Of a stretch of 64,000 nt of DNA, positions 1 to 51,410 are shown in pieces (the stretch's first letter is position 1; each line of letters opens with the position of its first letter). This DNA comes from a virus: IMG/VR virus record IMGVR_UViG_3300028895_000122; one strand, given 5' to 3'. The position numbers and the translations under genes are program-made. The notes below the pieces were generated by a model. It saw only the letters and a program-made list of their open reading frames with translations. It was not told the origin of the DNA and searched no databases.

Positions 1-173
1 AAGCTAACATCATATTCATCGCCTGTTGCTAGGTTAGGATCAGTTGCTGCTGCCGGAAATTTATGAATACCTTCTCTTTGGAAAGTAACCCATATCATTT
101 TACTGGCACCGTTTCTACGATGTTGTATTATATCAAACTGTGCTTGTGCTCTTGCGTTGTCTATATCACTCAT
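1..173 (-). CDS. hypothetical protein (partial, C-terminus beyond window)
   Basis: ATG at 173-171 overlaps stop of upstream gene (ATGA). Frame stays open to window edge (MSDIDNARAQAQFDIIQHRRNGASKMIWVTFQREGIHKFP...). Not in ORF track because it is incomplete. Confidence 0.35.
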   Translation of the reverse strand, partial: MSDIDNARAQAQFDIIQHRRNGASKMIWVTFQREGIHKFPAAATDPNLATGDEYDVS

Positions 174-685
174 ACTTCTATATCGCCTGTATATTCACTC
201 CAGTGTGTGAAGGTACTACGATCCATTAAATCTCTTACGCTATGAACCCATACACCTGGATTAGTTTGTTTTTCGGGATCGTCATCTATTTTAAGAACAG
301 CATTGTAACCAAGTTGGTCAATGTATTCCATTCTAACAGCGATCATTGGTATAAAGTTATTATACTCTACCAATGACGATTCGAGCAAGTCTGTCATGTG
401 TTGAACGGGAATATCTAATGTACAAACATATCCTTGATCAAGAAAATGCCTAATAGGTTTATCCCATTCCATCCATTGATCATAAAGTTCTAAACTTTCT
501 GTTAATCTAAAACTCTGATTTGCTGCGAAGTATAAGTGTTCTATAGTTGGCATATTAGCATTAGCTAGTACGTCTTCGATTTCTGCTTGGTTAGGAACCC
601 CAACAATAAACAATGTTTCTTTACCATGCATTGGTGTGTTTTCTACTTCGATACCTGTAAAGTATTTTACATTCATTCTATCCAT
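170..685 (-). CDS. hypothetical protein (172 aa)
   Basis: ORF-track ORF 170..739. The ATG at 685 has a GAGGT Shine-Dalgarno 5 nt upstream and abuts the stop of the TGT-like gene. The 739 start would overlap it. Confidence 0.5.
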   Translation of the reverse strand: MDRMNVKYFTGIEVENTPMHGKETLFIVGVPNQAEIEDVLANANMPTIEHLYFAANQSFRLTESLELYDQWMEWDKPIRHFLDQGYVCTLDIPVQHMTDLLESSLVEYNNFIPMIAVRMEYIDQLGYNAVLKIDDDPEKQTNPGVWVHSVRDLMDRSTFTHWSEYTGDIEV

Positions 686-686
686 T

Positions 687-2204
687 TTATACCTCAAATA
701 ATGATTCAAACGTTTGGTCTGAAACAACAGTGTGTTCACGTGGAGCAGGTTTCTCGACTACTAATGTAGGAATATCAAATTGGTCTGCCATAGTCTGAGC
801 ATTAACAGCTTTCTTACCACCCATACCACGTGCTCCAGCAATTCGCATAAACGTGTCGTGATAGAAATCTAGTATTGCTAATCTATCTTCATAATCTGGT
901 GCAGCAAATACAGCGTCAATGATATCGGTTATTGTAGTTCCATCGTTGGCAATAAGCATTGATGGATAGCAACCATTGTCATATGCTCTATTTGCTTGCT
1001 GTACAGCATTAATATGATGCCATACATTGTGACCCATCATTAATGCATAACTAAATGAATCCCAGCTTGTTTTACCTTCCTTGCCAATCTTATTTAGGTC
1101 ACCAGGTGCATATACACAAATATCATTGATTGCTAATTTCTCACTGATAGGACTATCATCAAACCGAGGATGGATACCATCACGTATAACAACGTCACGG
1201 AAGCTATCTGTGACATGAGCATAGGCTTTATTATCAGCAGTTGGATCCATGTTAAACTTCCATTTCTTGTGGAAGTCAGTTTCGGTGTGTGTATATAGTT
1301 GTCCGTTAGCAGTTGCTAGAAATGGACTTGCGCTGTCGAAGGATATAGTAAAATTGGGATTGTGGTGTCGACGTACTGCTCTTTGGACAGAGGTAAGCAA
1401 TGCTCCCCATTCAAGTTTACTTGTTCCTAAAAAGTGCATCCAGTCGTGTTTTCCTGTTTCGAGGAGACCGTCATGTATAATAGTGACAATACGCTTAAGA
1501 GCAAGATGGGGATCAGCCATATTAGCACCCCCCATTGCCCATCCTCGGAAGTAGTTTTTGTGTTTTGTTGGGTCATTATATTCCTTCATTATCTCGTACC
1601 ACTCATCGGCATCTGCATGATTAGATCCTTGTAGTACGTTTAAGAATTTAGCATCATTGAAACTATTTTCCATAAAGTATTCATGATTTGCTTTTGTAAC
1701 GTCGATAGCATCTTGTACAGTGTGAATATTTGTTTTAGCAACACTCTCTGGGTTATGTACAATCCATGTTGGTATATCAAGTGTCATACTATAATCACTT
1801 ACTTGACATAACCATTTAAGCACTGTAGAACGATACTTCTGTGCTTTCTTATCCATGTTCTTCCAATCTGCTTCCCACACACCTTTAGCAATCTGGAATC
1901 CACCTGAGTCTGCTAATAGTGTAGTATGATTGTCACGATTGCGAATCATGTACTCACCAGGTACATCTTTAGTAAGATCTAAGTTGGCATGACCTGCAGA
2001 ATATAATCCCCATTTGTATTGGAATAACCCTTCTTTGTCATTGAAGAAATTAAGCATCTCCATTTCTGGAATACCATTTGGCATTCGTGTATGCGGAACA
2101 TATTCTTCTGCTTGCTGCTTTCCTATATACGTTGCGTAAAAGGAACTAATAGCAGGCAAGTATATTGCATAATCTTTTTGTTCTGTTGTTAAGTCTGTGT
2201 TCAT
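687..2204 (-). CDS. tRNA-guanine transglycosylase (TGT/DpdA) family protein with C-terminal clamp-binding-like tail
   Basis: Ordered TGT-fold motifs: LADSGGFQ (catalytic Asp loop), SMTLDIPT (~AFDECTP), FLNVLQGS (~LFGIVQGG), GWAMGGAN (~GFAIGGLSVGE), HFLGTSK (~YLMGVGKP), ISFDSASPFLATANGQ (~GVDMFDCVLPTRSGRNGQ, nucleophile Asp). No CxCxxC zinc site seen. The protein ends TFESLFEV. Confidence 0.7.
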   Translation of the reverse strand: MNTDLTTEQKDYAIYLPAISSFYATYIGKQQAEEYVPHTRMPNGIPEMEMLNFFNDKEGLFQYKWGLYSAGHANLDLTKDVPGEYMIRNRDNHTTLLADSGGFQIAKGVWEADWKNMDKKAQKYRSTVLKWLCQVSDYSMTLDIPTWIVHNPESVAKTNIHTVQDAIDVTKANHEYFMENSFNDAKFLNVLQGSNHADADEWYEIMKEYNDPTKHKNYFRGWAMGGANMADPHLALKRIVTIIHDGLLETGKHDWMHFLGTSKLEWGALLTSVQRAVRRHHNPNFTISFDSASPFLATANGQLYTHTETDFHKKWKFNMDPTADNKAYAHVTDSFRDVVIRDGIHPRFDDSPISEKLAINDICVYAPGDLNKIGKEGKTSWDSFSYALMMGHNVWHHINAVQQANRAYDNGCYPSMLIANDGTTITDIIDAVFAAPDYEDRLAILDFYHDTFMRIAGARGMGGKKAVNAQTMADQFDIPTLVVEKPAPREHTVVSDQTFESLFEV

Positions 2205-4129: not shown

Positions 4130-5101
4130 TTAGATTACTTTGGATGGATCCGTAATAACCTGTGCTAATTCTTGACCACCACGCACTGATGTTAATTCGC
4201 CTGGTACCTTAACTTCAAACCAAGCAACATTGTCGTCTGGATAATTAACTTGATTAAGTAATTCAAAATCAAGTTTTTCTAATAATACCTTTAATAATCT
4301 ACCAGGTGTATATGTGTTCATCATATTTTCTGCATTGCGTACACCAGCAGTATAATCGCAATCATTATATGTAAACACAATAATTCCACCAGGCTTTAGA
4401 TATCTTTTTAGTTCTATTAGATAATCTTCGATAGCTTCAAGTGGCATATAGTTGAAATAATCATAAAGAACAATTAGACCAAGTTGATTCTCTGGCACAT
4501 TATGTACCTTATGATCACGTGTTTCTTCTATATTAAGATATCTAATTCTTTTCTGAAACTCAGGAGTCCATAGTTGTTTAACTTCATCAAACAATGACAT
4601 ATGAGTATCACCAATATACAACGGAGTACATGTTATCAATGGATCAACAAATTCTCCAGATTCTGGTCTAATAAATAATGCTGATCGTTTCCAATCAGCA
4701 TGAGTCTCGAGCCGGCCTATAAAGTGTTCTTTAACCTTGTCTCGTTTAATACATGGAAAGTTTTGATATCGTTCTTTAACATACTCGTGAGTATCATGCT
4801 CTTTAGCAGTATCGTACCACTCGTAACTTTGTTGAATTAATGGTTTTTCGAGTTCGTAAATAATGTCAGACATATCACTTTTATATTGTTCTAACATTTT
4901 ATCAAACTCATTGAGGTGTTGAGTTATTTTGGCTCCCATACCAACCATATCTGTTTGGTCACAAGCTAACCCAATATCTTGTGCTGATACATCACCTAAA
5001 ATTTTAGATAATTCAGTATTAACATATTGTGTTAACTCATTGACGTGCCATTGCTCAACTGCTGTACGATAACTTACTAAATCACTTAATTTCATTTTCA
5101 A
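4130..5101 (-). CDS. hypothetical protein, possible degenerate class-I methyltransferase-like fold
   Basis: ATGA overlap with the polymerase C-fragment. A C-terminal LKPGGIIVFTYNDCD resembles a post-motif MTase segment. No GxGxG motif I was found. Confidence 0.35.
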   Translation of the reverse strand: MKMKLSDLVSYRTAVEQWHVNELTQYVNTELSKILGDVSAQDIGLACDQTDMVGMGAKITQHLNEFDKMLEQYKSDMSDIIYELEKPLIQQSYEWYDTAKEHDTHEYVKERYQNFPCIKRDKVKEHFIGRLETHADWKRSALFIRPESGEFVDPLITCTPLYIGDTHMSLFDEVKQLWTPEFQKRIRYLNIEETRDHKVHNVPENQLGLIVLYDYFNYMPLEAIEDYLIELKRYLKPGGIIVFTYNDCDYTAGVRNAENMMNTYTPGRLLKVLLEKLDFELLNQVNYPDDNVAWFEVKVPGELTSVRGGQELAQVITDPSKVI

Positions 5102-6084
5102 AACTCGAATAAACTTTCAAATGTATTGCTAGTATCAGTTGCTGCTGCCAAATCCCATTCTAGTACACCTAATAGATTGTCAACCTTCTGATCAATGATT
5201 GTACTTTCCATTAAGTTATCATCAAACGGCAACTCTTTATACCACTCGGGTAAGTGTGCTTCATCTGTTGGATAACCGATGCTAGTCCATCCTAACGGAT
5301 TTTGTTTTAATTTACATACAATGGTTTTCATACCATCTACAATTTGCATGGTATAATTATCATTATTCATTTTGCGTAAAGTATTCCAATTTAATGCTGC
5401 TCGTACATGCCCGGGCATGTTAGCTTTACCTTGCGCTTTCTCCATATTACCGTATTTGGTTAAGTTGTTAACACGTTTTGGTGTTCCTTTTTCCCAACTA
5501 GGCTTTTCGTGGAATTCATTCTTAAATTCTTTAATTTCTTCGATTAATTCTTCTCTAGTTGAACCTGTTAGTAGACTATTTAGAATATTGCTCAAAAAGT
5601 CTTGTACTACCTTTGGCGTGTCGGAGCGTTTAAGGTCTAAGCCCATTGCTTTTACTTTGCCTGGCTTACCATCTACATCTTTGCGTTCGCCTTCGTCATC
5701 AACCACCATAATAGCATATCGCTTTTTCGTAATAAAAAGTCCACTACTGCCAACCACTTCTCGTCCACACGCAATAATTTCACCGTACGATTGTGGACAA
5801 TGAAATGCCCTCTTAGCAAACGCAGGAAAGGAGTCATTGACTTGTTGCCCAAGCTCGTCGTATAACGCGATCGCAACATCAGTGTTCCATTCTTGATCTC
5901 CTCTCTCAACTGCCTCCTTGACAACCGGCCAAGCAGAGAAATAAGCCGAGTCAGTGTTATGTACAAGCGATCCGTTTGCAAAAAAGAACGGATCCTGGTC
6001 AGCCATTGACACATCATAAACATACTCCTCTGTTGTATCTAACTTTTCTACGGATTTAACTCGTTGTCTTTTTAATTCAATCAT
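5098..6084 (-). CDS. 43: DNA polymerase (family B, gp43) C-terminal fragment carrying a C-intein
   Basis: It begins MIELKRQRVKSVEKLDTTEEYVYDVSMADQDPFFFANGSLVHN (intein blocks F/G ending HN), then TDSAYF, which completes YGD|TDS motif C. A 285-aa C-extein follows. The protein ends NTFESLFEF, a clamp-binding-like tail. Confidence 0.85.
   Translation of the reverse strand: MIELKRQRVKSVEKLDTTEEYVYDVSMADQDPFFFANGSLVHNTDSAYFSAWPVVKEAVERGDQEWNTDVAIALYDELGQQVNDSFPAFAKRAFHCPQSYGEIIACGREVVGSSGLFITKKRYAIMVVDDEGERKDVDGKPGKVKAMGLDLKRSDTPKVVQDFLSNILNSLLTGSTREELIEEIKEFKNEFHEKPSWEKGTPKRVNNLTKYGNMEKAQGKANMPGHVRAALNWNTLRKMNNDNYTMQIVDGMKTIVCKLKQNPLGWTSIGYPTDEAHLPEWYKELPFDDNLMESTIIDQKVDNLLGVLEWDLAAATDTSNTFESLFEF
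5956..6084 (-). other. split-intein C-fragment (43 aa) at the N-terminus of the polymerase C-fragment
   Basis: VYDVSM...NGSLVHN immediately precedes the +1 Thr of TDS. Confidence 0.7.
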
Positions 6085-6748: not shown

Positions 6749-7004
6749 CGTTTACGCTCAAATCTTGAATTGCTCTAGATAATATTTCTGACAAGTCGTG
6801 GAATCTAGGATCATCACCTTTGTCTAAAGTCGTACAGCATTCCGCGATTGCCCACCCTAATGCTTGAATTCTTTCTTGTTCTATATAATTTACTAATTTA
6901 TAGTATGCTGTTGTGGTTGGGTAAATACCATGCTCATCAGGGTGATCAAGCATTTCGCTAACGATATCACATACTACTTGTCTGTCTTTATCCATTCTAT
7001 ACAC
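6738..7004 (-). CDS. hypothetical small protein (between polymerase halves)
   Basis: Packed ORF. No motif recognised. Confidence 0.3.
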   Translation of the reverse strand: MYRMDKDRQVVCDIVSEMLDHPDEHGIYPTTTAYYKLVNYIEQERIQALGWAIAECCTTLDKGDDPRFHDLSEILSRAIQDLSVNDGN

Positions 7005-7951
7005 CTTTCTATAGTTTCTTTTATGTTATTCTTAAATTCTGATTCCCATATCACTAAAGTAGGAATACTTCTTTCTTTGAATAACGCATCAATTTTTTCT
7101 TTATCTTTTTTCCAAATATCTTCGGCAAGTAAATCTGCCTGACTATGATAATAGTTTACACTATATTTCTCTGGATTGCAATGCCAATAATCACCATTAA
7201 ACTCTATTGCTCGTCCTTTATGTACAATATCGTAGAAATTTGGTTTATTGTTAGCATACACACAATATTGTTTGGTATTGGCAGAATATTCTAAAGTTTC
7301 TCCTAAATTTAATTCTATTTGTTTAATAAACTCTAATTCTAAATCACTTACATAACCGCCAGTATTGTATTCACTTCGTATTTGCACGGCTTCTTCTACT
7401 GAACAATTATGTCTATTTTGGATTGAATCTATTGTATGTGATTTACCCTTGCATATTTCTATATATTTTTGGTTACCTTCTTCTACACCATATTTTTCAA
7501 TAAAGTATTCTTTAGTGTTAGTATATGCTTGTCTATCACAATAGGCAATCCATCTTTGCGATCCTTCTTCCTCTCCGTATTTAGATATTAAATTCTCTAA
7601 CGTAACAGCACGAGAACGGTTAAATTCCTTAAATTCTTCTTCGCTCCAACCATATCGTTCTTTTTTATATTCGTACGAGTTCGACTTGCGTTGTTTTTCG
7701 ACATAGTTTTGCCATGCTTTTTCACCTTCTACTTTTCCGTATTTCTCGACGAGATTATCTCGTGTTATCGCTGTTTTCTTTGCTAATTCCGCATCAACTA
7801 ACTGAGCATTTGGATATGCTTGTTTATATTCTGTTCCATTCTTAAACTTTCCTGTACACTTGTAAGCAAAGTGAGTCCATTGTAATCTTGGTGCTGTAAA
7901 ACCACATTCTAAACATTTTGGCATTATGGTGCTTCTCCTATCCGCATACAA
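6974..7951 (-). CDS. putative homing/selfish endonuclease: Zn-finger N-terminus, three EKYG.EEG repeats, C-terminal Vsr/DUF559-like PD-(D/E)XK domain
   Basis: An N-terminal CLECG...KC cysteine cluster. Repeats LVEKYGKVEGEKAW, LISKYGEEEGSQRW and FIEKYGVEEGNQKY. The C-terminal GRAIEFNGDYWH...PTLVIWESEF is similar to the Vsr/DUF559 ...RFWEHE end. It lies inside the split-polymerase locus. Confidence 0.5.
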   Translation of the reverse strand: MYADRRSTIMPKCLECGFTAPRLQWTHFAYKCTGKFKNGTEYKQAYPNAQLVDAELAKKTAITRDNLVEKYGKVEGEKAWQNYVEKQRKSNSYEYKKERYGWSEEEFKEFNRSRAVTLENLISKYGEEEGSQRWIAYCDRQAYTNTKEYFIEKYGVEEGNQKYIEICKGKSHTIDSIQNRHNCSVEEAVQIRSEYNTGGYVSDLELEFIKQIELNLGETLEYSANTKQYCVYANNKPNFYDIVHKGRAIEFNGDYWHCNPEKYSVNYYHSQADLLAEDIWKKDKEKIDALFKERSIPTLVIWESEFKNNIKETIERCIEWIKTDK

Positions 7952-7986: not shown

Positions 7987-8135
7987 ATGCGAATTAAAGA
8001 AGTCACAAAAAAGGTTGTTAAAGATGACGCAGACTATAACAATGATGTTATGTCTGGCCATCAAAAGCCTATTCCCGAACTTACACCTGCTCAAGTCAAA
8101 AAAGCAAAAGCCCTCAAAAAGATTAAGAATCTATA
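7987..8135 (+). CDS. possible small Lys-rich ORF (49 aa), opposite strand
   Basis: ATG..TAG open frame MRIKEVTKKVVKDDADYNNDVMSGHQKPIPELTPAQVKKAKALKKIKNL in the gap between the HEG-like gene and the polymerase N-fragment. It overlaps the polymerase stop and has no clear SD. Confidence 0.15.
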
Positions 8136-10315
8136 GAGATAATTAAGTCATCATCCTGCAATTCTGTAGGTTTAACTTCTATTGTAAATCCGTCTCTATC
8201 AACTATTAAACTATGATCCTCTGTAACGGTTATAGAACTACCATCTTCCATTGTGACCTTGTATAGTTGTTTGGATGTTTTATGACGCATCACATAGTTG
8301 ATCGCTCCAAATACAGCCTCATCTTCATGAGCATTATAACCAAGCACCTTTAGATCATGTTGTGCTTCTGTGGGTATGGCATATTCTTTACCGCCATCTT
8401 GCTCTACCTTGTATTGAATCTGATTGTATAAATCTTCTATGGATATGTTGCCTTTGTTGGTGTTTAATGTAGTATCGCCTGTAACTGAGTCGCCGTATAT
8501 GATGCATTCACCAACATGATCATATTCTCCTGTTAAACATTGATTAACATAAGCGTCCATGTGTTTAGCAATTGCTCGCCCTGTTAACGTTGTGCTTTGT
8601 CCTATCCTAGGGTCAAAAAATCTACAATGTGGGTTTAGGATAGCACCATATAAAGAGTTAAGGTTAATCTTTTTAACGAGTTGTCGTTTATCCCAGAAAG
8701 CAATTTCTTCTTTATCGCTTGCTGTTTTTTTCTTTGCTTGTAATTCTTTACGTTCGGCATACCAACGTTCTAGTAACCCTGGAACAACACCTTTCTTTTC
8801 GTATGTAAAGATGGTACCATTTGCACTTATACACCAATTGGTATTCTCGTTAAATATATGGTCATGTAACTCTTTTGCAGTATGTACGCTTTCTTCGCCG
8901 TTAACCCAATCGACAGTAATTTCTGTATCTGTTCTGCGATCCATAACTGCTGTATATTCCAATGTACCAAACAATCCTTCCCAGGCTGCTGCAAACGAAG
9001 CACCTACATATTTCTTACCATTTCTAAACGTCGGCTCTTGTTTCTTTTTAATGTAGTTGTTGGTCATTATAGGACGTAGTTGTCCTACAATAGTTTCATT
9101 AGCCATGTTCAATGCACGAATAACAGATGGATACAGTGAGTTCAAGTCAACCGACCCAATCCATTTATGTACACCTTTTTTAGGGTATGCTACATAAGCA
9201 CCTGCTGCTTGTGTATCTTCTTTGTCGTGGCGTTTACGATCTGGTACTACCATTCCGCGTTCATGTGCTTCGTTGATGATGGCTTGCTCTGTTACCGCCA
9301 CCGCGCCCATTGTTGTAGGAAGCAATACAGTATTAGCATGAGCTAGTTCGTTTGCTAAATCAAGGAACTTGAGTTTCTCATCCAGTTTAGCAAGTAACGC
9401 AACGTCCTGCCTGTTATAGTCAATAAACGTGTAAAAGTCTTGGTTGTATAGTTGGTCAAGTGTGCCTTCATATTCTACCTTACGCTCGCCAAGTTCATAT
9501 TCACCAATTGCATCTAAGCTATAAGAATGCATTTCGTGATATGTATATTTTCTGTACAGTTGCATATAATCCATATGAACCCTACCAACTGTATCATATG
9601 TAATATGTTCTGCACCAAACCGTTCAAATGTACGTTTCTTAGGTAACATACCCCACAAACATAATCTACGAGTGTCGTCTTTACTTAATACTCGTGTAAT
9701 ACGATTTACTGTGTATGGTATATCAAAGCCTTCGCTGTTCCAGCCGCTATACACGTCGGCGTCTTCGATTATATCCAAAAAGGTTAATAACATATCACGT
9801 TCGTGTTCGAAGATAAATGTATTAGGAAACTCTTTACACATTTCTTGTGCTTCTTCGACTGATAATGTTTTTGGCGGCACCGCCAATGTAATAAGACTTT
9901 CCATCCAATCTAAATATACTGTGATAGCAGTAATCTTATTAAACGGATCGTCTGTTGGTGCAAAACCTTTTTCTTGGTGGAAGTCCACCTCGATATCAAA
10001 AAACGCTGTTTGTAGTTTGGGTGAGTCAACATCTTTATAGTTTGTTTCTATACACCTAAAGATAGGATTAATATCAGATTCAAACAATTGTTGACCTGAA
10101 TGCATTTTAATTTCTTTTTGGAACTCTTTGCCAGTTCTACATGAAAACTTCGATACTGGTGTTCCATAAAGACTTATGTATTTCCCTTTTGCTGATGGGT
10201 AATAAAATACATAGTCGGCAGGATATTCTTTGAATAATCTCTGCCCATCTTTTGATCTTTCTACAATTTTAATACGATCATGTTCACGATCGTGTATAGC
10301 GTCAACATAACTCAT
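8123..10315 (-). CDS. 43: DNA polymerase (family B, gp43) N-terminal fragment carrying an N-intein
   Basis: FFDIEV (Exo I), DLNSLYPS (motif A) and KINLNSLYG (motif B) are present. The extein ends ECIIYGD. A 121-aa SVTGDTTL...VTEDHSLIV... tail follows, then stop. Confidence 0.85.
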   Translation of the reverse strand: MSYVDAIHDREHDRIKIVERSKDGQRLFKEYPADYVFYYPSAKGKYISLYGTPVSKFSCRTGKEFQKEIKMHSGQQLFESDINPIFRCIETNYKDVDSPKLQTAFFDIEVDFHQEKGFAPTDDPFNKITAITVYLDWMESLITLAVPPKTLSVEEAQEMCKEFPNTFIFEHERDMLLTFLDIIEDADVYSGWNSEGFDIPYTVNRITRVLSKDDTRRLCLWGMLPKKRTFERFGAEHITYDTVGRVHMDYMQLYRKYTYHEMHSYSLDAIGEYELGERKVEYEGTLDQLYNQDFYTFIDYNRQDVALLAKLDEKLKFLDLANELAHANTVLLPTTMGAVAVTEQAIINEAHERGMVVPDRKRHDKEDTQAAGAYVAYPKKGVHKWIGSVDLNSLYPSVIRALNMANETIVGQLRPIMTNNYIKKKQEPTFRNGKKYVGASFAAAWEGLFGTLEYTAVMDRRTDTEITVDWVNGEESVHTAKELHDHIFNENTNWCISANGTIFTYEKKGVVPGLLERWYAERKELQAKKKTASDKEEIAFWDKRQLVKKINLNSLYGAILNPHCRFFDPRIGQSTTLTGRAIAKHMDAYVNQCLTGEYDHVGECIIYGDSVTGDTTLNTNKGNISIEDLYNQIQYKVEQDGGKEYAIPTEAQHDLKVLGYNAHEDEAVFGAINYVMRHKTSKQLYKVTMEDGSSITVTEDHSLIVDRDGFTIEVKPTELQDDDLIISIDS
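8126..8488 (-). other. split-intein N-fragment (121 aa) at the C-terminus of the polymerase N-fragment
   Basis: Block A SVTGDTTL follows YGD directly. Block B is TxxH (SSITVTEDHSLIV). Confidence 0.7.
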
Positions 10316-16717: not shown

Positions 16718-17431
16718 TTATATTTCCTCATTAATTATGTTGTATGTTTTCTTTAAAAGTCCGGGCGCACATATATTAAAAATAGTTTCTATGCCAGGAT
16801 CATTATAGTCAAAGAAAAAATGTTCTTGACAGTATTTACTTGGAAAATTTAACCAACGTTTAAAAGTTCGACATGGTACAACTGTATCGTGATAAATCTT
16901 TAAAAATTGTTTTAGTTTTTGTTTGTGATCGTTTGTTACAATACACGTTTTTAAATAAGTTCTATACTTGTAATCAGAATTTTTTCTAACCAATGAACCC
17001 GAATCGGAATTAATCTTTATTTCTGTTATGCCGGGATCTACTATACCAGGCAATGTTAATAATTCTTCTAAAAACGGTATATTATTCGAATAACAATAAA
17101 AACGGTGTGTTGTAAGAACCAACCGATATTTAAGATCCTGTTCATTGAAGAAGTTAATAAATGAATTTAAGTTTTCTTTTGTGATATCGGTAATCGGTTC
17201 TCTATGCATTGAGCCAACCATACCAAGTGAACGCGGTACATAAAACCCCGAACGTTTATATCTTTCTTTAATTCGTAAGCGTTCATCTAATCCGACACTG
17301 GTTAATCCTCGTACAGAATTAACTTCTTGAAGATACCCACATGCAGACCATTGATACTCATTAAAGAATAGTTTATTGCTTTTCTTTATACTATAATTTA
17401 GGTTTGAATTGGTCCAAGACAATGTATCCAT
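16718..17431 (-). CDS. hypothetical protein
   Basis: Packed ORF. No motif recognised. Confidence 0.4.
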   Translation of the reverse strand: MDTLSWTNSNLNYSIKKSNKLFFNEYQWSACGYLQEVNSVRGLTSVGLDERLRIKERYKRSGFYVPRSLGMVGSMHREPITDITKENLNSFINFFNEQDLKYRLVLTTHRFYCYSNNIPFLEELLTLPGIVDPGITEIKINSDSGSLVRKNSDYKYRTYLKTCIVTNDHKQKLKQFLKIYHDTVVPCRTFKRWLNFPSKYCQEHFFFDYNDPGIETIFNICAPGLLKKTYNIINEEI

Positions 17432-19688
17432 CGTCGCTTATTGTGCCCTCGGGCATTTTCTCCGTTGTTAATTTATTATTCTGTTCGAAGATTATTTCTT
17501 CACCATCTAAAAGAACTGTTAATGTTGTGTCTTTAAGATTTTCAAATAATATCTTTTTACTTAGCGGTACTTTAAGTAATTCATTGATTTTTCTTGATAT
17601 AGGTCTAGCACCCATTTTGCTATCATAACCAACATCTGCAAGAAAATCAATTACAGCTTCAGTAACATTAATTTTAATATTTTTATTTTTAAGTTGTTCT
17701 TTAAGATCTATAATAAACTTATTAACAACCTTCTTAATACTTAGCTCATCTAATTTGTTGAACTTAACAATCGCATCTAATCTATTACGCAATTCAGGTT
17801 TGAAGAACTCTTTAACAGCTTTATCTTCTTCTCCAGACTTTTCTAAGTCTTGCCCAAAGCCGATGTTAAAGTTTTCGTTATCTCTTGCACCTAAGTTACT
17901 TGTTAATAAAATAATGCAGTTCTTTATATTTACTGTTTTTCCTGAAGAACTTGTAATATGTCCTTCGTCGAGCATCTGTAACATAATGTTAGACACATCT
18001 GGATGAGCCTTTTCAATTTCATCAAACAATAAGATACTATATGGATCTTTAGTAATGTCTTGAATAAGTTTACCACCACCTAAATTACCATCTTCGTATC
18101 CTACATATCCAGGCGGTGCACCAATTAACTGTGACACACTATGTCGTTCTTGATATTCTGACATGTCATAACGTAACAGTTCCATGTCTAGGTTCTTGCT
18201 TAACAATTTAGCAAACTCAGTTTTACCGCAGCCTGTAGGTCCAAGTAATAAGAAGCTAGCAACTGGTTTATTTTCTGTAGTTAATCCACCGAAGCTAACA
18301 TAGATACGATCAAGCATTTCATCTACTGCGTCATCTTGACCGTAAAGTTTCTCTTTGATGTTGGCTCCTAAGTCGCGCACCTTATTACAATCTTCATTTT
18401 TAAGACGTTCAACAGGAACAGTAGTAATCTTCTCTGCTTCTCTGAAAATAAGGTCTGGTGTAATCTCAACATCCTTATTATCTTTAGCACGTTGTTTAGC
18501 ACATGCCGCATCTAATAGATCGATTGATTTATCTGGATTCTGTCTATCGTGGATATAACGTGTTGCTAAGTCCACCGCAGTAATACAGGCCTCTTTATCG
18601 ATTCGAACGCTGTGGAATTCTTCGAGTCGACTAGAAAGTCCGTTTAGGATTTTGATAGTTGTATCATGATCTGGCTCGTCGATATTGAGTTTATAGAATC
18701 GACGCATTAATGCACGATCCTGTTCAAATGTTTCGTAAAACTCTTCCCAGGTAGTTGAAGCAATTACTTTAAGTTTGCCGCGTGTAATAGCAGGCTTTAA
18801 CATGTTGGCCATATCTAAGTTGCCATTGCTACCAGCACCAGCACCTGACATAGTGTGTGCTTCGTCGATGAACAAGATACCGTTATTAAGTGTTTCCAAT
18901 GCTTTAATAACTTCTTGGAACTTTTCTTCAAACTCACCACGATACTTCGAACCAGCTAATAAAGATCCAACTTCCAATGACCATACTGTATGTCCTTTAA
19001 GAAACTCAGGAACATCACCTTCGGCTATTTCCTGTGCAAGGCCTTCTACGATTGCTGTTTTACCAACGCCAGGGTCACCTACCATTAGTACATTTGATTT
19101 AAACTTCTTAGCAAGAATTTCAACCGCGTCTTGAATTTCGTTTGCACGACCAATCAATGGTTCGAACTTACCTTCTTCTGCTAATTCGGTTAAGTTAGTA
19201 CAGTGCTCATACAGAATGTCTTCCGCTTGGTCGTTGTTTAATGTTACTTTAGCGCCTTCTTTGTAACTCTTGTTCCAGTGCTCAACAAATGAATCTTTAT
19301 CGACACCGTGTTTCAATAAGAAGTAAGATGCATGACTATTTGTTTCTGCAGAAATACTTAGGTAAAGATCAATGGTTGTAATTTGTTTACGTCCAGAGAA
19401 AAGAACTTGTGTTCCTGCTCTATTGAATATGCGTTCTAATGCATTTGTACGTTTTGGTGTGTCTTTGTATTGTGGGTTAACAATATTTTTAAGATTGACT
19501 AAATATCCTTCGAGTTCTGAATCAAATAAATCAGTATCAACTCCGTAGTTCTTTAATACTTCATCAAATGGTTCGAATCGAATAAGTGCTAACAGTAAAT
19601 GTTCTGTTAATACATATTCATGTTTCTTCTGTTTTGCAATGTGAATTGCATATTCTGTAATTTGTTCAATCTCTGGATTTACTTGCAT
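17391..19688 (-). CDS. ClpA/ClpC-like two-AAA+ domain unfoldase (765 aa)
   Basis: A Clp_N-like [10 protein letters not shown] segment. AAA1 Walker [23 protein letters not shown]2 [16 protein letters not shown]. The length matches ClpA (no ClpB middle domain). Confidence 0.8.
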
Positions 19689-20051: not shown

Positions 20052-20831
20052 TTATTCTTGCAAGTCTTTTATTGATTTAATTAACTCGGTTGGAATATTT
20101 TTCGGTAATCGAGCAAGTAACTTAACATACATATCTCCCTGTCTGTTATGTTTTCCTTTTAACCCTTTGCCTTTGACCCTCATTAAGGTATTAGGTTGAC
20201 TTTTTGCTGGTACAGTTAGTACAATTTTTTGTCCTAAAATAGTTTCAACTTCTAATTTCTTTCCTAGTATGAAATCCCAAAAGTCTAAGGTATATTCCTT
20301 AGTTAAATCTAATCCATGTCTTAACCATTCCTTATCATCTTGTATATTGAATATTATGTGTACTTCAGAATTAGGAATTAAATTTGGGTAGCTAATAACA
20401 TCTCCGTCGTTTATACCTAACGGAATTTCAATTTCTGCTGATCTTACCTGGCCAGAGGCATCTTGAATTGTAACTATCTTTTTGCCGCCGGTAGCAATAG
20501 TTTCTAATTCGACAATTAGTCTAACCCTGACGATATTCGTTCTACGATGTTGTCTTTGCGAGTGATTAAAGAAGTCGTTGAATACACTATTAAAGTCTTG
20601 ACCTTGTCTAAAGTTAAATTCCCTAAAATGTTCTCCGTTTCCAAATTGGTCATGTTGCTTACGTTTAGATTCATCACCTACTATAGCATACGCATCACCA
20701 ATTTCTTTAAATTTAGTTTCATCACCGCCGCGGTCAGGATGATGCTGCATCGCTAGTTTGCGATATGCTTTTTTAATTTCATCTTGGGTGGCTGTTTTTT
20801 TAACACCTAATACTTCATACGGATCACGCAT
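20052..20831 (-). CDS. DnaJ-like J-domain protein (no Zn-finger)
   Basis: N-terminal [36 protein letters not shown] is a J domain with HPD. Confidence 0.7.
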
Positions 20832-22575: not shown

Positions 22576-24162
22576 CTATGAATAGTTAATGTTTCCTTTA
22601 TTCTTCCAACCCCACGCTAGAACAATAAAAATTAATGTAAAAATAATAACAAACAATGGGTGTCCTAGTAAATCTTTTGAATCCATGCTTGCCATCATAA
22701 GTTGTCCTTTGCCTACAGACTCACCTGTAAACCAAGACTTTATTTGTATTAAAGGATAACCACCTATGTTGTATAATTTTAGTTGGTATGTTAGTAGTTC
22801 AATTTTATCACCTAATATAAATCCAATCATCATTGCTGGTCTACTAAACTTAAATTGTCTCATTGCTAAACCTAACAATGTAAATATTAATAATAAGATT
22901 ATGTTTTCTATTCCGTATGTCCCGAAGCCACTTGTGTAAGTTGCCCATAATATGAATATCAGTAAGAATGGGAAATAGTATTTGTAAGGCACATAAGCAA
23001 TCATTGTAAAGTATCGCATGAAGTACAAACATAATAGTCCTGTTATTAATGTTGCACCTAAAAAGCCAATGCTCAAGCTATTAAAGAATAACTTGTCACC
23101 TAATAGACTTTGTCCTTCTAAAGTTAGTTCGAATCCTACAGCACCAAATAATCCAATTACTATTGCAGCAAATGGTGCTCCTGGAATACCAAACAAAATA
23201 GTAGGAATAAATGAACTAGCCTTTTGTGCATTGTTACTACCTTCCGGTCCAATGACACCTTTAATGTTACCGTTACCAAACTTTTCTTTTGGGTTAGTTG
23301 CTACGGCTTGACCATAGCTTAACCAATCAGACATAGCACCACCTAAGCCTGGCAGGAATCCAATAATAGATCCAATTAATCCTCCACGCATTGATAGCTT
23401 CCATTCTTTAAATGATACTTTAATCCCATCCCAAAGTTGTTGTGTATGCTCACCTAAGTCGCGTCTTTCTGCTAATGCTGTTTTCTTTAGTGCGAGTAAA
23501 ATCTCAGGCATTGCAAACAATCCAGCAATAACAGGAATAAGCGGAATGCCTTTACCTACGCCACTACCAGACAAGAATTCAAAACCCATTGTAAATCGTG
23601 GCTCTGCTGTTACTGGATCAGTTCCAATCATTGCTAAGAACACGCCCAATGATAATGCTACTAAAGAACGTATCCAATATTGATTAGATACAAAGCCGAC
23701 AGTAACAAAAGCAAGGACACACATTGCCCATAATTCTGCTTGTCCTACACCACCTTCTGTTGGCGGCAATATAACAAAGTCATAATAATAAGGTAACAAT
23801 AAGAATACAGCCGAACCCCATATTAAGCCATTTACCGTGCTTGTTGTGATGGCTGCGCTTAATGCATACGTTGCCTTACCTTGTTGTGCTAACGGAAACC
23901 CATCAACCATTGTTGCTGCGGAACTATTAGCACCAGGTATACCTAATAACACAGATGCAAAGGTATCCCCTGTTGTACTTGCTGCGACAACTGCTGTAAT
24001 GAATATAACGGCTAGATAAGGATCAACTGACTTTAACGCAACAATAAAAGGAAACAAGGCTACGAGGCCTGTTGTTGCTCCTGCTGCTGGAATAATGCCA
24101 ATTAATAGTCCATAAACTATTCCTGCGAATAATGCTAAAAATGCGAGTAAATAAAATTCCAT
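22576..24162 (-). CDS. TctA-like (DUF112) multi-pass membrane permease
   Basis: 528 aa with more than 12 hydrophobic helices. Two internally repeated halves carry Gly-rich GIPGA/LPGLGG segments. It lies 9 nt upstream of the TctC-like gene. Confidence 0.5.
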   Translation of the reverse strand: MEFYLLAFLALFAGIVYGLLIGIIPAAGATTGLVALFPFIVALKSVDPYLAVIFITAVVAASTTGDTFASVLLGIPGANSSAATMVDGFPLAQQGKATYALSAAITTSTVNGLIWGSAVFLLLPYYYDFVILPPTEGGVGQAELWAMCVLAFVTVGFVSNQYWIRSLVALSLGVFLAMIGTDPVTAEPRFTMGFEFLSGSGVGKGIPLIPVIAGLFAMPEILLALKKTALAERRDLGEHTQQLWDGIKVSFKEWKLSMRGGLIGSIIGFLPGLGGAMSDWLSYGQAVATNPKEKFGNGNIKGVIGPEGSNNAQKASSFIPTILFGIPGAPFAAIVIGLFGAVGFELTLEGQSLLGDKLFFNSLSIGFLGATLITGLLCLYFMRYFTMIAYVPYKYYFPFLLIFILWATYTSGFGTYGIENIILLLIFTLLGLAMRQFKFSRPAMMIGFILGDKIELLTYQLKLYNIGGYPLIQIKSWFTGESVGKGQLMMASMDSKDLLGHPLFVIIFTLIFIVLAWGWKNKGNINYS

Positions 24163-31366: not shown

Positions 31367-31675
31367 TTATTCCTCTGATAATTTGTGTGCTAATAATTTT
31401 TGTTCCCACTCTTTCTTCCATTCGGGATTAATTTTGTTATACATTGTATCTAATAGATATTTTAACATAAAAACTTCTTTCTGGTATGTATTATGGACAT
31501 ATCCATCCGTGTCTGTTGAAAAGGCATTAATAGTTATGTAGTGTAGCTTTTTCATAACCTCGTGGTATGCTTCGGTACGTTCCTCGTCTGGGAACAATGG
31601 TACTGCTCGTTTAATCATGTTTTGTCCATTCTGGTTGATTACGTTTTGTCCACTTGAACAAATGTTTCTTTTCAC
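31367..31675 (-). CDS. hypothetical protein
   Basis: Packed ORF. Confidence 0.35.
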   Translation of the reverse strand: MKRNICSSGQNVINQNGQNMIKRAVPLFPDEERTEAYHEVMKKLHYITINAFSTDTDGYVHNTYQKEVFMLKYLLDTMYNKINPEWKKEWEQKLLAHKLSEE

Positions 31676-32078
31676 CTAAGTAATACTTTCGGTATGCAAT
31701 GATAGCATCGTCATCTCTGTATTCGTCTGGCATTGCTTGTGCAAATGGTGTTAACCCGTTATCTTCTAATTTAGGGTCCGGGAGGGTTTCTATCATATCC
31801 CAGGATTTATGATTGCGAGTATGATTGAATCGGAATTGCCATTCTTTATGTAATGCTTCTGTTAAGTCTCGAAGGTAATTGTAATTAGATTGAGATTCTC
31901 TAGTCCAAATTGTGCATGGATGATTTTTATGTGTTAGCCTATAACCAGCATCGTAACCAGCAAGCCTGACAGTAGCAGAGAGCATCTGGGCATGTTCTAC
32001 AATCATTTTAACAACATGTTTGTCGCCGTATGATTGCACGTTTTTATTAATATCAGAATCTAATAGAAATATATTCAT
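31611..32078 (-). CDS. hypothetical protein
   Basis: Trimmed to the ATG at 32078 (MNIFLLDSD...), which has AGGAGG SD 6 nt upstream. Confidence 0.4.
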   Translation of the reverse strand: MNIFLLDSDINKNVQSYGDKHVVKMIVEHAQMLSATVRLAGYDAGYRLTHKNHPCTIWTRESQSNYNYLRDLTEALHKEWQFRFNHTRNHKSWDMIETLPDPKLEDNGLTPFAQAMPDEYRDDDAIIAYRKYYLGEKKHLFKWTKRNQPEWTKHD

Positions 32079-32145
32079 AAAAAACCTCCTAACTGATTGT
32101 ATTATAGCAAATACCAGAAAGGAGGTCAATGAAATTTCTTTGAAA

Positions 32146-42132: not shown

Positions 42133-42969
42133 TCACCTTAGGTGTTGGGTTTCTTTAACTATAAAATTTTTGTCTTTATACATGCGCTGGTCAGCTAAGT
42201 GGATTATATCATCAATATCACTAGCTTCTAAACTTGTTGCATAGCCCATACTACAAGAAATTTGTTGCGGTCCTGCATCTGTAAAAATAGGTTTATTAAT
42301 TGCATCATAAATCTTATCCATGATCATGTTAATAACTTTGGTACTAATTGTTTTATTAATTAAAATAACAAATTCATCACCACCGTAACGACATACAATA
42401 TCGCTATCGCGAAGTAAGTGCTGCAATCGTTTTGCTACGACAGCCAGGACTTGATCACCTGCAGAATGACCACCAGGACCATCATTGACTGCTTTAAACT
42501 TGTTTAAGTCAATAAAGATTAATGAAAAATGATCAACTATAAACGATGCTTCGTTAAAAAATGCACGTCTAGTTAATGTGCCTGTTAGCGAATCAAAATT
42601 AATTTCATCATGGTAATCATCAAATCGAGCCACAGCATGTTCATCATCTAGTTTAAAAACATCAATGGCCAAACGAATCGTTTCCATGTTGCGATTTTTT
42701 GCTAGTATTACCCGTCTATCACTTAGCGTGTATCTATCCTCAGCTGTTGATCTGTCCATAAATTTATGCATCATATCAGCATGTTTTAATGCTGGGTTCT
42801 CGATTAAAATGTCTAAATCTTTGCCAATGAGCTCGTTTGGTTTATACCCAAATACATGAGCACCATACTCATTTATTGTAACAATTTTATGCTCTTTATT
42901 AAGCATAAGCATTCCAGAGCCGCACATATCAAGCATCTTTAAGAGAACTTCCGTTGTTGGTGTATTCAT
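42133..42969 (-). CDS. PAS-GGDEF diguanylate cyclase with intact A-site and RxxD I-site
   Basis: DSLTGTLTRRAF...FIDLNKFKAVNDGPGGHSAGDQVL...LRDSDIVCRYGGDEFVIL...LADQRMYKDK. RDSD lies five residues before GGDEF (the I-site). The N-terminal ~110 aa are PAS-like. Confidence 0.8.
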   Translation of the reverse strand: MNTPTTEVLLKMLDMCGSGMLMLNKEHKIVTINEYGAHVFGYKPNELIGKDLDILIENPALKHADMMHKFMDRSTAEDRYTLSDRRVILAKNRNMETIRLAIDVFKLDDEHAVARFDDYHDEINFDSLTGTLTRRAFFNEASFIVDHFSLIFIDLNKFKAVNDGPGGHSAGDQVLAVVAKRLQHLLRDSDIVCRYGGDEFVILINKTISTKVINMIMDKIYDAINKPIFTDAGPQQISCSMGYATSLEASDIDDIIHLADQRMYKDKNFIVKETQHLR

Positions 42970-49775: not shown

Positions 49776-51410
49776 TTACTTGGTAGTGCTACGATCGTAT
49801 GTTAGCTGTTTTGCAGCCTGCATAGTCATCATGTTCATGAAGTTTGCTACTTCACTATCACCACCTACTACAGGTCCTGTGCCATCACCACTACCACCAA
49901 AGCTAGTAACGTTCTGTGGTACTGCACGATTAGCATAAGCCTGTGCCCATACGTTGTGGATCTTAACCTCTGCATCAAGTTTCTGCTGCAAGGCACCATC
50001 CGCTTCAAGTACCAAACGTTTGTACTCAGAGTCACCACGACCTTCTGCTTTCTTCATTTCCTCGTACTCAAGAGCCGCAAGTTTCAACTGTTCTTTTTCA
50101 AGCTTCTGTTGTGCTGCAACCTCTACAAGTTTTTCCGCACCAAGGATTGCCACTGCTTTTGCTTTTTCGGCATCTACAACAGCTCGGATCTTTTCCTGCT
50201 CTTTCTCATACTTTGCAATGGTTACGTCACGTTTACCATTTTCTTCCGCAGTAATCGCTTCCTGCTTAGCCTGTTCAGCTTTTGCTTTTGCAGTAATAAT
50301 CGCCATTGTTGCTTTACGTTTCTCAGCAATCTGATCCAACGTTTTCTGTTCAAAGCCCCAGTCAGTAATCTGATATCCAGATACAGTAATACCGTACGCT
50401 TTCAAGTCAGTTTCGAAACGTTTAGCAAGACCATCTTCACCATATGCAATAACTGGAATGTTCTTAACAACTGATTTGCCAGTTACTTCATCCTTAACAA
50501 CATCCTGTTTCAACTCAGTGCGATACTTACCGTTAGTAACCTGATCACGTGACCACTCAATATAAGTACCACGCTGTTCTGCGTATGCACCCTCAGAAGT
50601 CATAAGACCAGCAGTCAAGTTCTGTGCTTCGTCTGTTACTGTTTTAATAAGTTTATATGCCACACCACCGTTTGAACGAAATGCTTTATGTAGTTTAAGC
50701 ATATTTGCATCATCTTTTGGCAAGTCAAAACGTGCTTTACCGAAAATAGTACCCGTACCACCATCTTGGTAACGAACCGGGATACCATCTACATCAATTG
50801 ACGTTTCACCATCTGCTGCGGTACGATCAAAGTCGTAAGTTACAACGTCACGATAAACTGTGACATTACCAAACCATTGTGTATAAAATCCTGGTTCAAA
50901 CTTAACAAAAAGTTTACCGTTTGGATACTGTACAACCGTTCGGTTACCAGCATCGTTAATACCAAATAGCAATGGGCTCACTGCCACAGTAAGGATCAAA
51001 ACCACAATCCCCAAAATCGCCTTCCAATTAATTACCATGTTAAAATTTCCTCTAAAGTTAGTATTTGGTGGCTCATCATTACCCTCATCTCCGCCGCCAC
51101 CGTTAGCAGAGTTGCCTACAAAAGTTTCCTTTAGTTTGGGTTTAATATTACGTTCCCAAGCCTTTCGCAAGAAACCTTTAGAATTTTCGATTTTTTCTCT
51201 ATGTTCGGTTATAGTTCTATCTTTATAACGCTCAATGATTTCAACTGTTTCGTCAAACGTTAAATTGTCACGTTCATTGATATGATCAATTAATGCTTTA
51301 ACTCTGCCCGGAACATGTCTAAGGTTTTCATTTTCGAATGCCGTTGCAAGACTATCAACATACATCTTGAGTTTTTCTAACTCGGCATCAGTATATTTTT
51401 CTTTACTCAT
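49776..51410 (-). CDS. SPFH/band-7 (HflK/C-, flotillin-like) membrane protein
   Basis: One TM helix (ILGIVVLILTVAVSPLLFGI). SPFH core ...GITVSGYQITDWGFEQKTLDQIAEKRKATMAIITAKAKAEQAKQEAITAEENGKR... followed by a long Ala/Glu/Lys coiled coil. Confidence 0.6.
   Translation of the reverse strand: MSKEKYTDAELEKLKMYVDSLATAFENENLRHVPGRVKALIDHINERDNLTFDETVEIIERYKDRTITEHREKIENSKGFLRKAWERNIKPKLKETFVGNSANGGGGDEGNDEPPNTNFRGNFNMVINWKAILGIVVLILTVAVSPLLFGINDAGNRTVVQYPNGKLFVKFEPGFYTQWFGNVTVYRDVVTYDFDRTAADGETSIDVDGIPVRYQDGGTGTIFGKARFDLPKDDANMLKLHKAFRSNGGVAYKLIKTVTDEAQNLTAGLMTSEGAYAEQRGTYIEWSRDQVTNGKYRTELKQDVVKDEVTGKSVVKNIPVIAYGEDGLAKRFETDLKAYGITVSGYQITDWGFEQKTLDQIAEKRKATMAIITAKAKAEQAKQEAITAEENGKRDVTIAKYEKEQEKIRAVVDAEKAKAVAILGAEKLVEVAAQQKLEKEQLKLAALEYEEMKKAEGRGDSEYKRLVLEADGALQQKLDAEVKIHNVWAQAYANRAVPQNVTSFGGSGDGTGPVVGGDSEVANFMNMMTMQAAKQLTYDRSTTK

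Follow-up and report, generated by a model that had tools for sequence, protein, structure and literature searches.

A predicted DpdA-like transglycosylase with a polymerase-like tail in an uncultured virus

The gene, its family and its fold

At the left edge of a 64,000-nucleotide stretch of viral DNA (IMG/VR record IMGVR_UViG_3300028895_000122; the whole stretch is called the window here), a gene for a transglycosylase and two small genes, n171 and n146, form a conserved module just downstream of the DNA polymerase gene (Table 1). The transglycosylase ORF (open reading frame) is a genuine gene. A preliminary description had read its product as an enzyme of the tRNA-guanine transglycosylase (TGT) and DpdA type, a reading that is supported by the fold, the catalytic residues and the gene neighbourhood; we regard membership of the TGT/DpdA superfamily as very nearly certain. 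Judged by sequence, the protein belongs to an unclassified DpdA-like subfamily, none of the described subfamilies being a fit at that level.

Neither as a single sequence nor as a profile did the 505-amino-acid (aa) protein give a match in Pfam, PHROGs, PADLOC or the PDB sequences, and in the open-access literature we found no paper that names it or assigns its family. The family is nevertheless very large. A word-based search returned at least 7,991 homologous proteins, none of which, among the matches listed, has a Pfam domain, and an exhaustive search gave 878 clusters at 50% identity (E <= 0.001); members are found on contigs of up to 697 kb. Among 50,697 GenBank phage records a homologue is present in 13, where it is annotated as “hypothetical” in every case (13/13). 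The carriers are eleven PA5oct-like Pseudomonas jumbo phages (38% identity), Sinorhizobium phage Phosso (27%) and Vibrio phage 2.275.O (29%), and 20 kb of the window compared with the same records by megablast gave no match. When 47 family members were scanned singly, 13 matched the NCBIfam model tgt_general (TIGR00449) at E <= 0.01, and the only other NCBIfam family matched was the related Q_tRNA_tgt (2 of 47).

A confident AlphaFold2 model of the protein, built on the 47 homologues (pLDDT, the predicted local distance difference test, 89.3; pTM, the predicted template modelling score, 0.87), has as its predicted fold a TIM barrel of the TGT type that is closest to DpdA. The first nine Foldseek matches in the PDB are all TGTs. 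The best structural match is a DNA enzyme, the DNA preQ0 insertase DpdA, followed in structure comparison by QTRT2 (18.5), bacterial TGT (17.4), Cap10 (14.6) and archaeosine TGT (13.9), while generic TIM barrels score 12.0 or less. The model also includes an extra N-terminal region of about 90 residues with two short strands. When a 98-sequence family profile was compared with reference sequences by hhalign, it matched DpdA2 of Vibrio phage VH7D (96% probability, E 1.5e-9), E. coli Tgt (91%, E 1e-6, 187 aligned columns) and gp042 of phage phiST (74%, E 2.7e-5, 89 columns), a protein of 259 aa that is a candidate DpdA3 by its position; at the level of profiles, the resemblance to TGT exceeds chance. 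A kinship with the DpdA1 of phage Seurat was considered and rejected, as there is no detectable profile similarity (5%, E 0.008).

The motifs follow one another in the same order as in E. coli Tgt (DSGGFQ, M..D, QG, GG, LG and FD...P..NG), and D99, D143 and D290 align to D89, D143 and D264 of that enzyme and are invariant in the 47 homologues. The ordered TGT segments named in the preliminary description, including DSGGFQ and ISFDSASPF...ANGQ (ANGQ being residues 299-302), are thus confirmed, and the comparison of structures and profiles that it had proposed as a check returned a TGT-type barrel, with DpdA as best match and the catalytic aspartates kept on alignment. The aspartate of ISFDSASPF, which it had taken for the nucleophile, is D290; the counterpart in Tgt is the nucleophile D264, and D290 is the predicted covalent nucleophile. 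S100, G101, G102 and Q104 are likewise invariant. By analogy with Asp95 and Phe99 of DpdA (PMC10164549), D99 would be the general acid/base and F103 the base-stacking residue, and D143, which corresponds to Asp130 of DpdA (PMC10164549), is the residue predicted to recognise guanine or 7-deazaguanine by its Watson-Crick edge. In TGTs the beta6-alpha6 loop reads the 7-substituent (PMC10164549); after the two glycines at its start N228 is invariant and D231 nearly so. As aligned, the full catalytic set is retained, consisting of D99, D143, the QG and GG pocket loops and D290.

Table 1. Features of the locus and of one related phage (positions are those of the window, except for the PA5oct gene)
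Feature	Position	Strand	Remarks
TGT/DpdA-like transglycosylase, coding sequence	687..2204	minus	single ORF, 505 aa, ATG start
DSGGFQ loop, residues 99-104	1893..1910	minus	aligns to Tgt LTDSGGFQ
D143	1776..1778	minus	MTLD aligns to Tgt MIFD; invariant
Q192-G193, substrate-pocket motif	1626..1631	minus	VLQGSN aligns to Tgt IIQGSV; both invariant
G225-G226, start of Gly-rich beta6-alpha6 loop	1527..1532	minus	WAMGGAN aligns to Tgt YAVGGLA; invariant
ISFDSASPF, residues 287-295, with D290	1320..1346	minus	aligns to Tgt MFDCVMP and DpdA2 ISYDSS
Disordered linker, residues 459-497	714..830	minus	sequence and length variable across the family
C-terminal tail TFESLFEV, candidate sliding-clamp-binding peptide	690..713	minus	polymerase-like ending
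n171, 171-aa ORF	170..685	minus	directly downstream of the transglycosylase gene
n146, first 57 codons of a 146-aa T-fold QueD/PTPS-like protein	1..173	minus	remainder outside the window
Family-B DNA polymerase, C-terminal fragment, intein-split	5098..6084	minus	ends TFESLFEF (5101..5124)
PA5oct phosphoribosyltransferase EST35_0321	L001:11946-12380		PF00156, 2e-11; adjoins QueE

Distant homologues of about 445 aa, with 27-33% identity and all catalytic motifs kept, occur in bacteria, on contigs that include Azospirillum and Polynucleobacter isolates and megabase-size contigs of metagenome-assembled genomes (L106-L125). Beside them lie tyrosine integrases and, on the upstream side, a conserved ORF of about 580 aa that gave no PDB or plasmid match; the homologues may represent a separate module on mobile elements.

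Gene neighbourhood and C-terminal tail

Of 80 related viral loci from IMG/VR, 76 have n171 directly 3' of the transglycosylase gene. The n171 protein has about 1,440 homologues but gave no Pfam, PHROG or PDB-profile match; a weak NCBIfam match to ogg (E 0.02) was treated as noise. The T-fold of n146 was seen only through its predicted structure, an hhalign comparison with QueD being not significant (0.4%).

FolE, QueD, QueE, QueC and QueF are all undetectable in the window. The preliminary description had noted that synthesis genes are lacking there, which is correct, and had concluded that the substrate supply was unknown, which no longer holds, as n146, FolE and QueD are encoded on the same contig. 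The flank beyond the left edge of the window was read from a 109-kb ENA contig that encodes an identical protein. Past the transglycosylase gene, the order on this contig is n171, n146, a 300-aa ORF, a GT1 glycosyltransferase, an NAD-dependent epimerase/dehydratase, a DegT aminotransferase, FolE, a UDP-glucose/GDP-mannose dehydrogenase and PTPS/QueD. The matches to FolE (5.6e-61) and PTPS/QueD (5e-26) lie 5-9 kb past the left edge of the window. The 300-aa ORF (n300) was not identified by the searches made, and n230, also on the contig, matches only phrog_4657, a PHROG that has no assigned function. The sugar-nucleotide genes that are interleaved with FolE and QueD (L004:13607-18914, 2-7 kb past the left edge) might decorate a modified base or be unrelated to it.

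Among the 80 loci a homologue of the C-terminal polymerase fragment is found upstream of the TGT-like gene in 77, n146 in 72, QueE in 19 and QueD in 11, while FolE, which was counted only in the 38 loci whose downstream flank reaches 9 kb or more, is present in 35. QueE is present in every one of six loci that were anchored on the closest QueD relatives (6/6), at a distance of 0.4-4.1 kb and following QueD, and in the two whose ORFs were inspected individually it is preceded by a phosphoribosyltransferase-like ORF (L126:13335-13922 and L127:12716-13237). Neither QueC nor QueF turned up in any of the 86 related viral loci, made up of the 80 from IMG/VR and the six anchored on QueD.

Linkage to que genes was seen independently in two distant lineages, PA5oct and Vibrio phage 2.275.O. 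The order in PA5oct is the TGT-like gene, a weak GT1-like gene, the n146 homologue, an epimerase-like gene, the phosphoribosyltransferase and QueE, with the T-fold gene, the phosphoribosyltransferase and QueE all within 4 kb; the GT1-like and epimerase-like genes lie at L001:9617-11934, beside the homologue. Downstream of the homologue in Vibrio phage 2.275.O come an amidoligase-like gene, then QueF, a YhhQ-like transporter, QueC, an amidotransferase, FolE and a QueE-like ORF. The genes from QueF to FolE are annotated within 6 kb downstream and the QueE-like ORF lies at about 7 kb. The family therefore displays the genomic linkage to 7-deazaguanine synthesis genes by which DpdA membership is judged. 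The amidoligase-like gene next to the Vibrio homologue (L009:11726-12838) has a weak Amidoligase_2 match (E 1.8e-4, just under the cut-off), and its position beside QueF, QueC and the amidotransferase hints at another 7-deazaguanine derivative in that lineage.

The DNA of PA5oct resists restriction enzymes with G-containing sites, from which its authors infer a modified G in GA and/or GG context; they note the QueE and PTPS genes and name no transglycosylase (PMC12191111).

AlphaFold2 predicts residues 459-501 and 503-505 of the window protein to be disordered (pLDDT < 50 for 459-501). The tail in which the protein ends is identical at 7 of 8 positions to that of the DNA polymerase (TFESLFEV and TFESLFEF), and such an ending occurs in 2 of the 371 ORFs of the window, namely these two. 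The related loci show F-x-x-L-F-[DE] in 80 of 85 tails of the transglycosylase and in 79 of 81 of the polymerase; in many family members a further acidic extension comes after the motif. As a background within the window, the loose motif occurs in the last 60 residues of 21 of 267 ORFs and the strict motif in the last 14 residues of 3 of 267. Neither the bacterial homologues nor the reference sequences of DpdA1-3 carry the F-x-x-L-F motif, and we know of no base-exchange enzyme reported to carry such a tail.

The T4 proteins gp43, gp55 and gp33 bind the sliding clamp with hydrophobic-acidic C-termini that are interchangeable and sit on flexible linkers (PMC2988020). The same pattern, a polymerase-like hydrophobic-acidic C-terminal peptide on a flexible and variable linker, is found here, with binding as a prediction. 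Because the T4 clients use C-termini of this kind, tethering of the enzyme to the clamp is a reasonable inference by analogy, which we consider a serious possibility without giving it the better part of our confidence.

Proposed function and competing explanations

The protein probably exchanges guanine in DNA for a 7-deazaguanine made by the phage. D290 would attack C1' of a deoxyguanosine flipped from duplex DNA, releasing guanine and leaving a covalent enzyme-DNA intermediate, which would be resolved by a 7-deazaguanine derived from GTP via phage FolE, QueD and QueE. Since QueC and QueF were not found in the close relatives, the inserted base is probably 7-carboxy-7-deazaguanine (CDG) or a base derived from it, and not preQ0 unless that comes from the host; the neighbouring sugar-nucleotide genes might elaborate the inserted base further. 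Docking on the sliding clamp by the polymerase-like tail would have new DNA modified right behind the fork, and the modified guanine would shield the genome from host restriction. A large group of uncultured giant phages, then, probably disguises its DNA with modified guanine.

The subfamilies bDpdA and DpdA1-4 were defined by Cui et al. (2023), for whom DpdA serves as the signature of 7-deazaguanine DNA modification (PMC10516641). The bacterial DpdA of Salmonella Montevideo (PDB 7UI4) has the TIM barrel, three active-site aspartates and the link to 7-deazaguanine synthesis in common with the window protein, to which it is only 16% identical; the two were compared by structure alone. The differences are a CxCxxC...H zinc site in the bacterial enzyme, its DpdB and DpdC partners, of which none is evident here, and, on the side of the window protein, the N-terminal region of about 90 residues, another C-terminal helical domain and the disordered polymerase-like tail. 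As QueC is not nearby, the substrate here is, unlike that of bacterial DpdA, probably not preQ0.

Among the profile matches, DpdA2 of the Vibrio phage VH7D/nt-1 type comes closest, and all motifs align in register. The DpdA2 phages and this phage are both large and T4-like, and the FolE of this contig is about 60% identical to that of VH7D. The two transglycosylases, however, have no similarity at BLAST level, the hidden Markov model (HMM) of the family giving DpdA2 only 22.7 bits, and DpdA2 has no F-x-x-L-F tail. VH7D has QueC and QueF, and its DpdA2 inserts preQ1 and preQ0 (PMC10516641), whereas the close relatives here have neither gene. DpdA3 (Campylobacter phage CP220, Cellulophaga phage phiST) is a very divergent TGT homologue that is proposed to insert CDG or a derivative and replaces guanine completely (PMC10516641). 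Its pathway logic is similar, as phiST lacks the full preQ0 pathway and synthesis in the Campylobacter phages is reported to stop at CDG (PMC10516641), but the phiST candidate gp042 has half the length of the window protein and no common tail. To DpdA4 (PF20314) the window protein gave no Pfam match. From bacterial Tgt it differs in falling under the family cut-offs, in lacking the zinc site and in a context of DNA replication rather than tRNA; of the features of Tgt and archaeosine TGT, neither the HMM cut-off nor the zinc subdomain was found, nor any PUA or other Pfam domain.

Several observations speak against the proposed base exchange, or against parts of it. The curated thresholds of PF01702 and TIGR00449 are not reached, Pfam being empty at E <= 0.1 and the tgt_general match (residues 94-321, E 0.001) scoring 18 bits against a cut-off of 47.6. 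The zinc site is reported to be conserved in bacterial DpdA and TGTs (PMC10164549), and, as the preliminary description had already remarked, it is not seen here; there is no CxCxxC motif in the protein, which has 3 cysteines in all, nor in the homologues of PA5oct, the Vibrio phage and Phosso. This loss is not disqualifying, because the DpdA1 of Seurat and the DpdA2 of VH7D also lack CxCxxC in the sequences checked. The preliminary description had called for a search for synthesis genes outside the window, and this brought up FolE and QueD but neither QueE nor QueC on this genome within the window plus 10 kb; the bacterial homologues have no que genes within 10 kb. As regards the tail, transglycosylase and polymerase endings do not co-vary by locus (3.76 identities against 3.85 when permuted), so the argument from the tail relies on the shared consensus, and tblastn with the CPt10 and Seurat clamps located no clamp gene in the window. 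Finally, the phosphoribosyltransferase that is conserved beside QueE also fits a pre-replicative route at the level of nucleotides.

That route is the main rival. The modified guanine would enter DNA before replication, the phosphoribosyltransferase converting the 7-deazaguanine base to a nucleotide for reduction, phosphorylation and use by the polymerase, and the TGT-like enzyme would be an auxiliary concerned with residual G, the nucleotide pool or salvage. In tubercidin and toyocamycin biosynthesis a phosphoribosyltransferase adds ribose phosphate to CDG or preQ0, which counts in favour of such a pathway, and to this may be added the enzyme that adjoins QueE in PA5oct and the homologous-looking ORF before QueE in the closest relatives. 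Yet a phosphoribosyltransferase could equally salvage the guanine freed by base exchange, and an auxiliary role sits poorly with a fully kept catalytic set and with a polymerase-like tail that suits an enzyme acting on DNA at the fork. To our knowledge, moreover, the characterised TGT and DpdA enzymes all act on polymerised nucleic acid. The nucleoside ADG has been reported in cells infected with phage CP220 (as quoted in PMC10516641), which fits the nucleotide-level pathway, but Cui et al. make the case that DpdA is present in all known 7-deazaguanine phages and that these modify their DNA after replication (PMC10516641). We consider it unlikely that modified guanine arrives as a nucleotide.

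Still less probable is a tRNA-guanine transglycosylase that puts a precursor of queuosine or archaeosine into tRNAs of the host or the phage and so tunes translation. The hhalign probability for E. coli Tgt, the fact that the weak NCBIfam matches are to tRNA-TGT models and a JGI record that calls a homologue “queuine/archaeosine tRNA-ribosyltransferase” would fit such an enzyme, but the top structural match is DpdA and the top profile match a phage DpdA2, the zinc subdomain is not present and there are no tRNA genes in the window. The synteny with the DNA polymerase gene in 77 of 80 loci and the common C-terminal tail also point to DNA, and it is the DNA itself that is restriction-resistant in PA5oct (PMC12191111). 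A Cap10-like enzyme joining 7-deazaguanine to protein, or a TIM barrel that is catalytically silent and serves in structure or regulation, we regard as very improbable. Cap10 has the fold, but in the structure comparison it lies 5 Z units below DpdA; QueC-like ORFs of the Cap9 type occur in 0 of 80 loci and no nucleotidyltransferase is among the Pfam hits of the neighbours. A silent barrel would hardly be expected to keep both catalytic aspartates and the pocket loops invariant.

Taking the proposed guanine exchange further, one may combine its parts into a single tentative picture, which as a whole is possible rather than likely. The family would count as the fifth DpdA-like subfamily of phages, and it would provide the transglycosylase that has been missing from PA5oct-type phages and from many uncultured aquatic jumbo phages. 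It would act co-replicatively on the clamp through a tail that mimics that of the polymerase, and it would install a not yet described base derived from CDG, perhaps decorated by the co-located glycosyltransferase, dehydratase, aminotransferase and dehydrogenase.

Significance and other genes of the window

Modifications of DNA by 7-deazaguanines are a major counter-defence of phages. Recognising this family, which Pfam, PHROGs and PADLOC do not see, would extend predictions of guanine modification to many aquatic jumbo phages and would give a candidate enzyme for the suspected G modification of PA5oct, a candidate for therapeutic use. The polymerase-like tail offers a testable answer to the question of how a genome can be modified efficiently by base exchange, and bears on whether modification takes place before, during or after replication.

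The window also encodes an intein-split family-B polymerase, a clamp-loader subunit, PhoH, ClpB, DnaJ, PNKP and RNA ligase 1, and therefore appears to derive from a large T4-like or jumbo phage. The polymerase gene is split into 8123..10315 and 5098..6084, both on the minus strand, with about 2 kb of other ORFs between them, including 6974..7951. An intein-splicing domain (PF14890, below the gathering score) closes the N-terminal part and the C-terminal part begins with an intein-C-like “...SLVHNT”, an arrangement that looks like a split intein; in PA5oct a homing endonuclease lies at the corresponding place. Auxiliary genes of an unusual kind at 42133..42969, 22576..24162, 17391..19688, 20052..20831 and 49776..51410 encode a PAS-GGDEF diguanylate cyclase, a TctA tricarboxylate transporter subunit, a ClpB-type disaggregase, DnaJ and an SPFH/Band-7 protein. 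Adjoining the clamp-loader gene, at 31367..32129 on the minus strand, two ORFs of 172 aa and 102 aa overlap in different frames. The 172-aa ORF matches the first half of phrog_624 (“DNA binding protein”), and the two could be one frameshifted gene or two genes.

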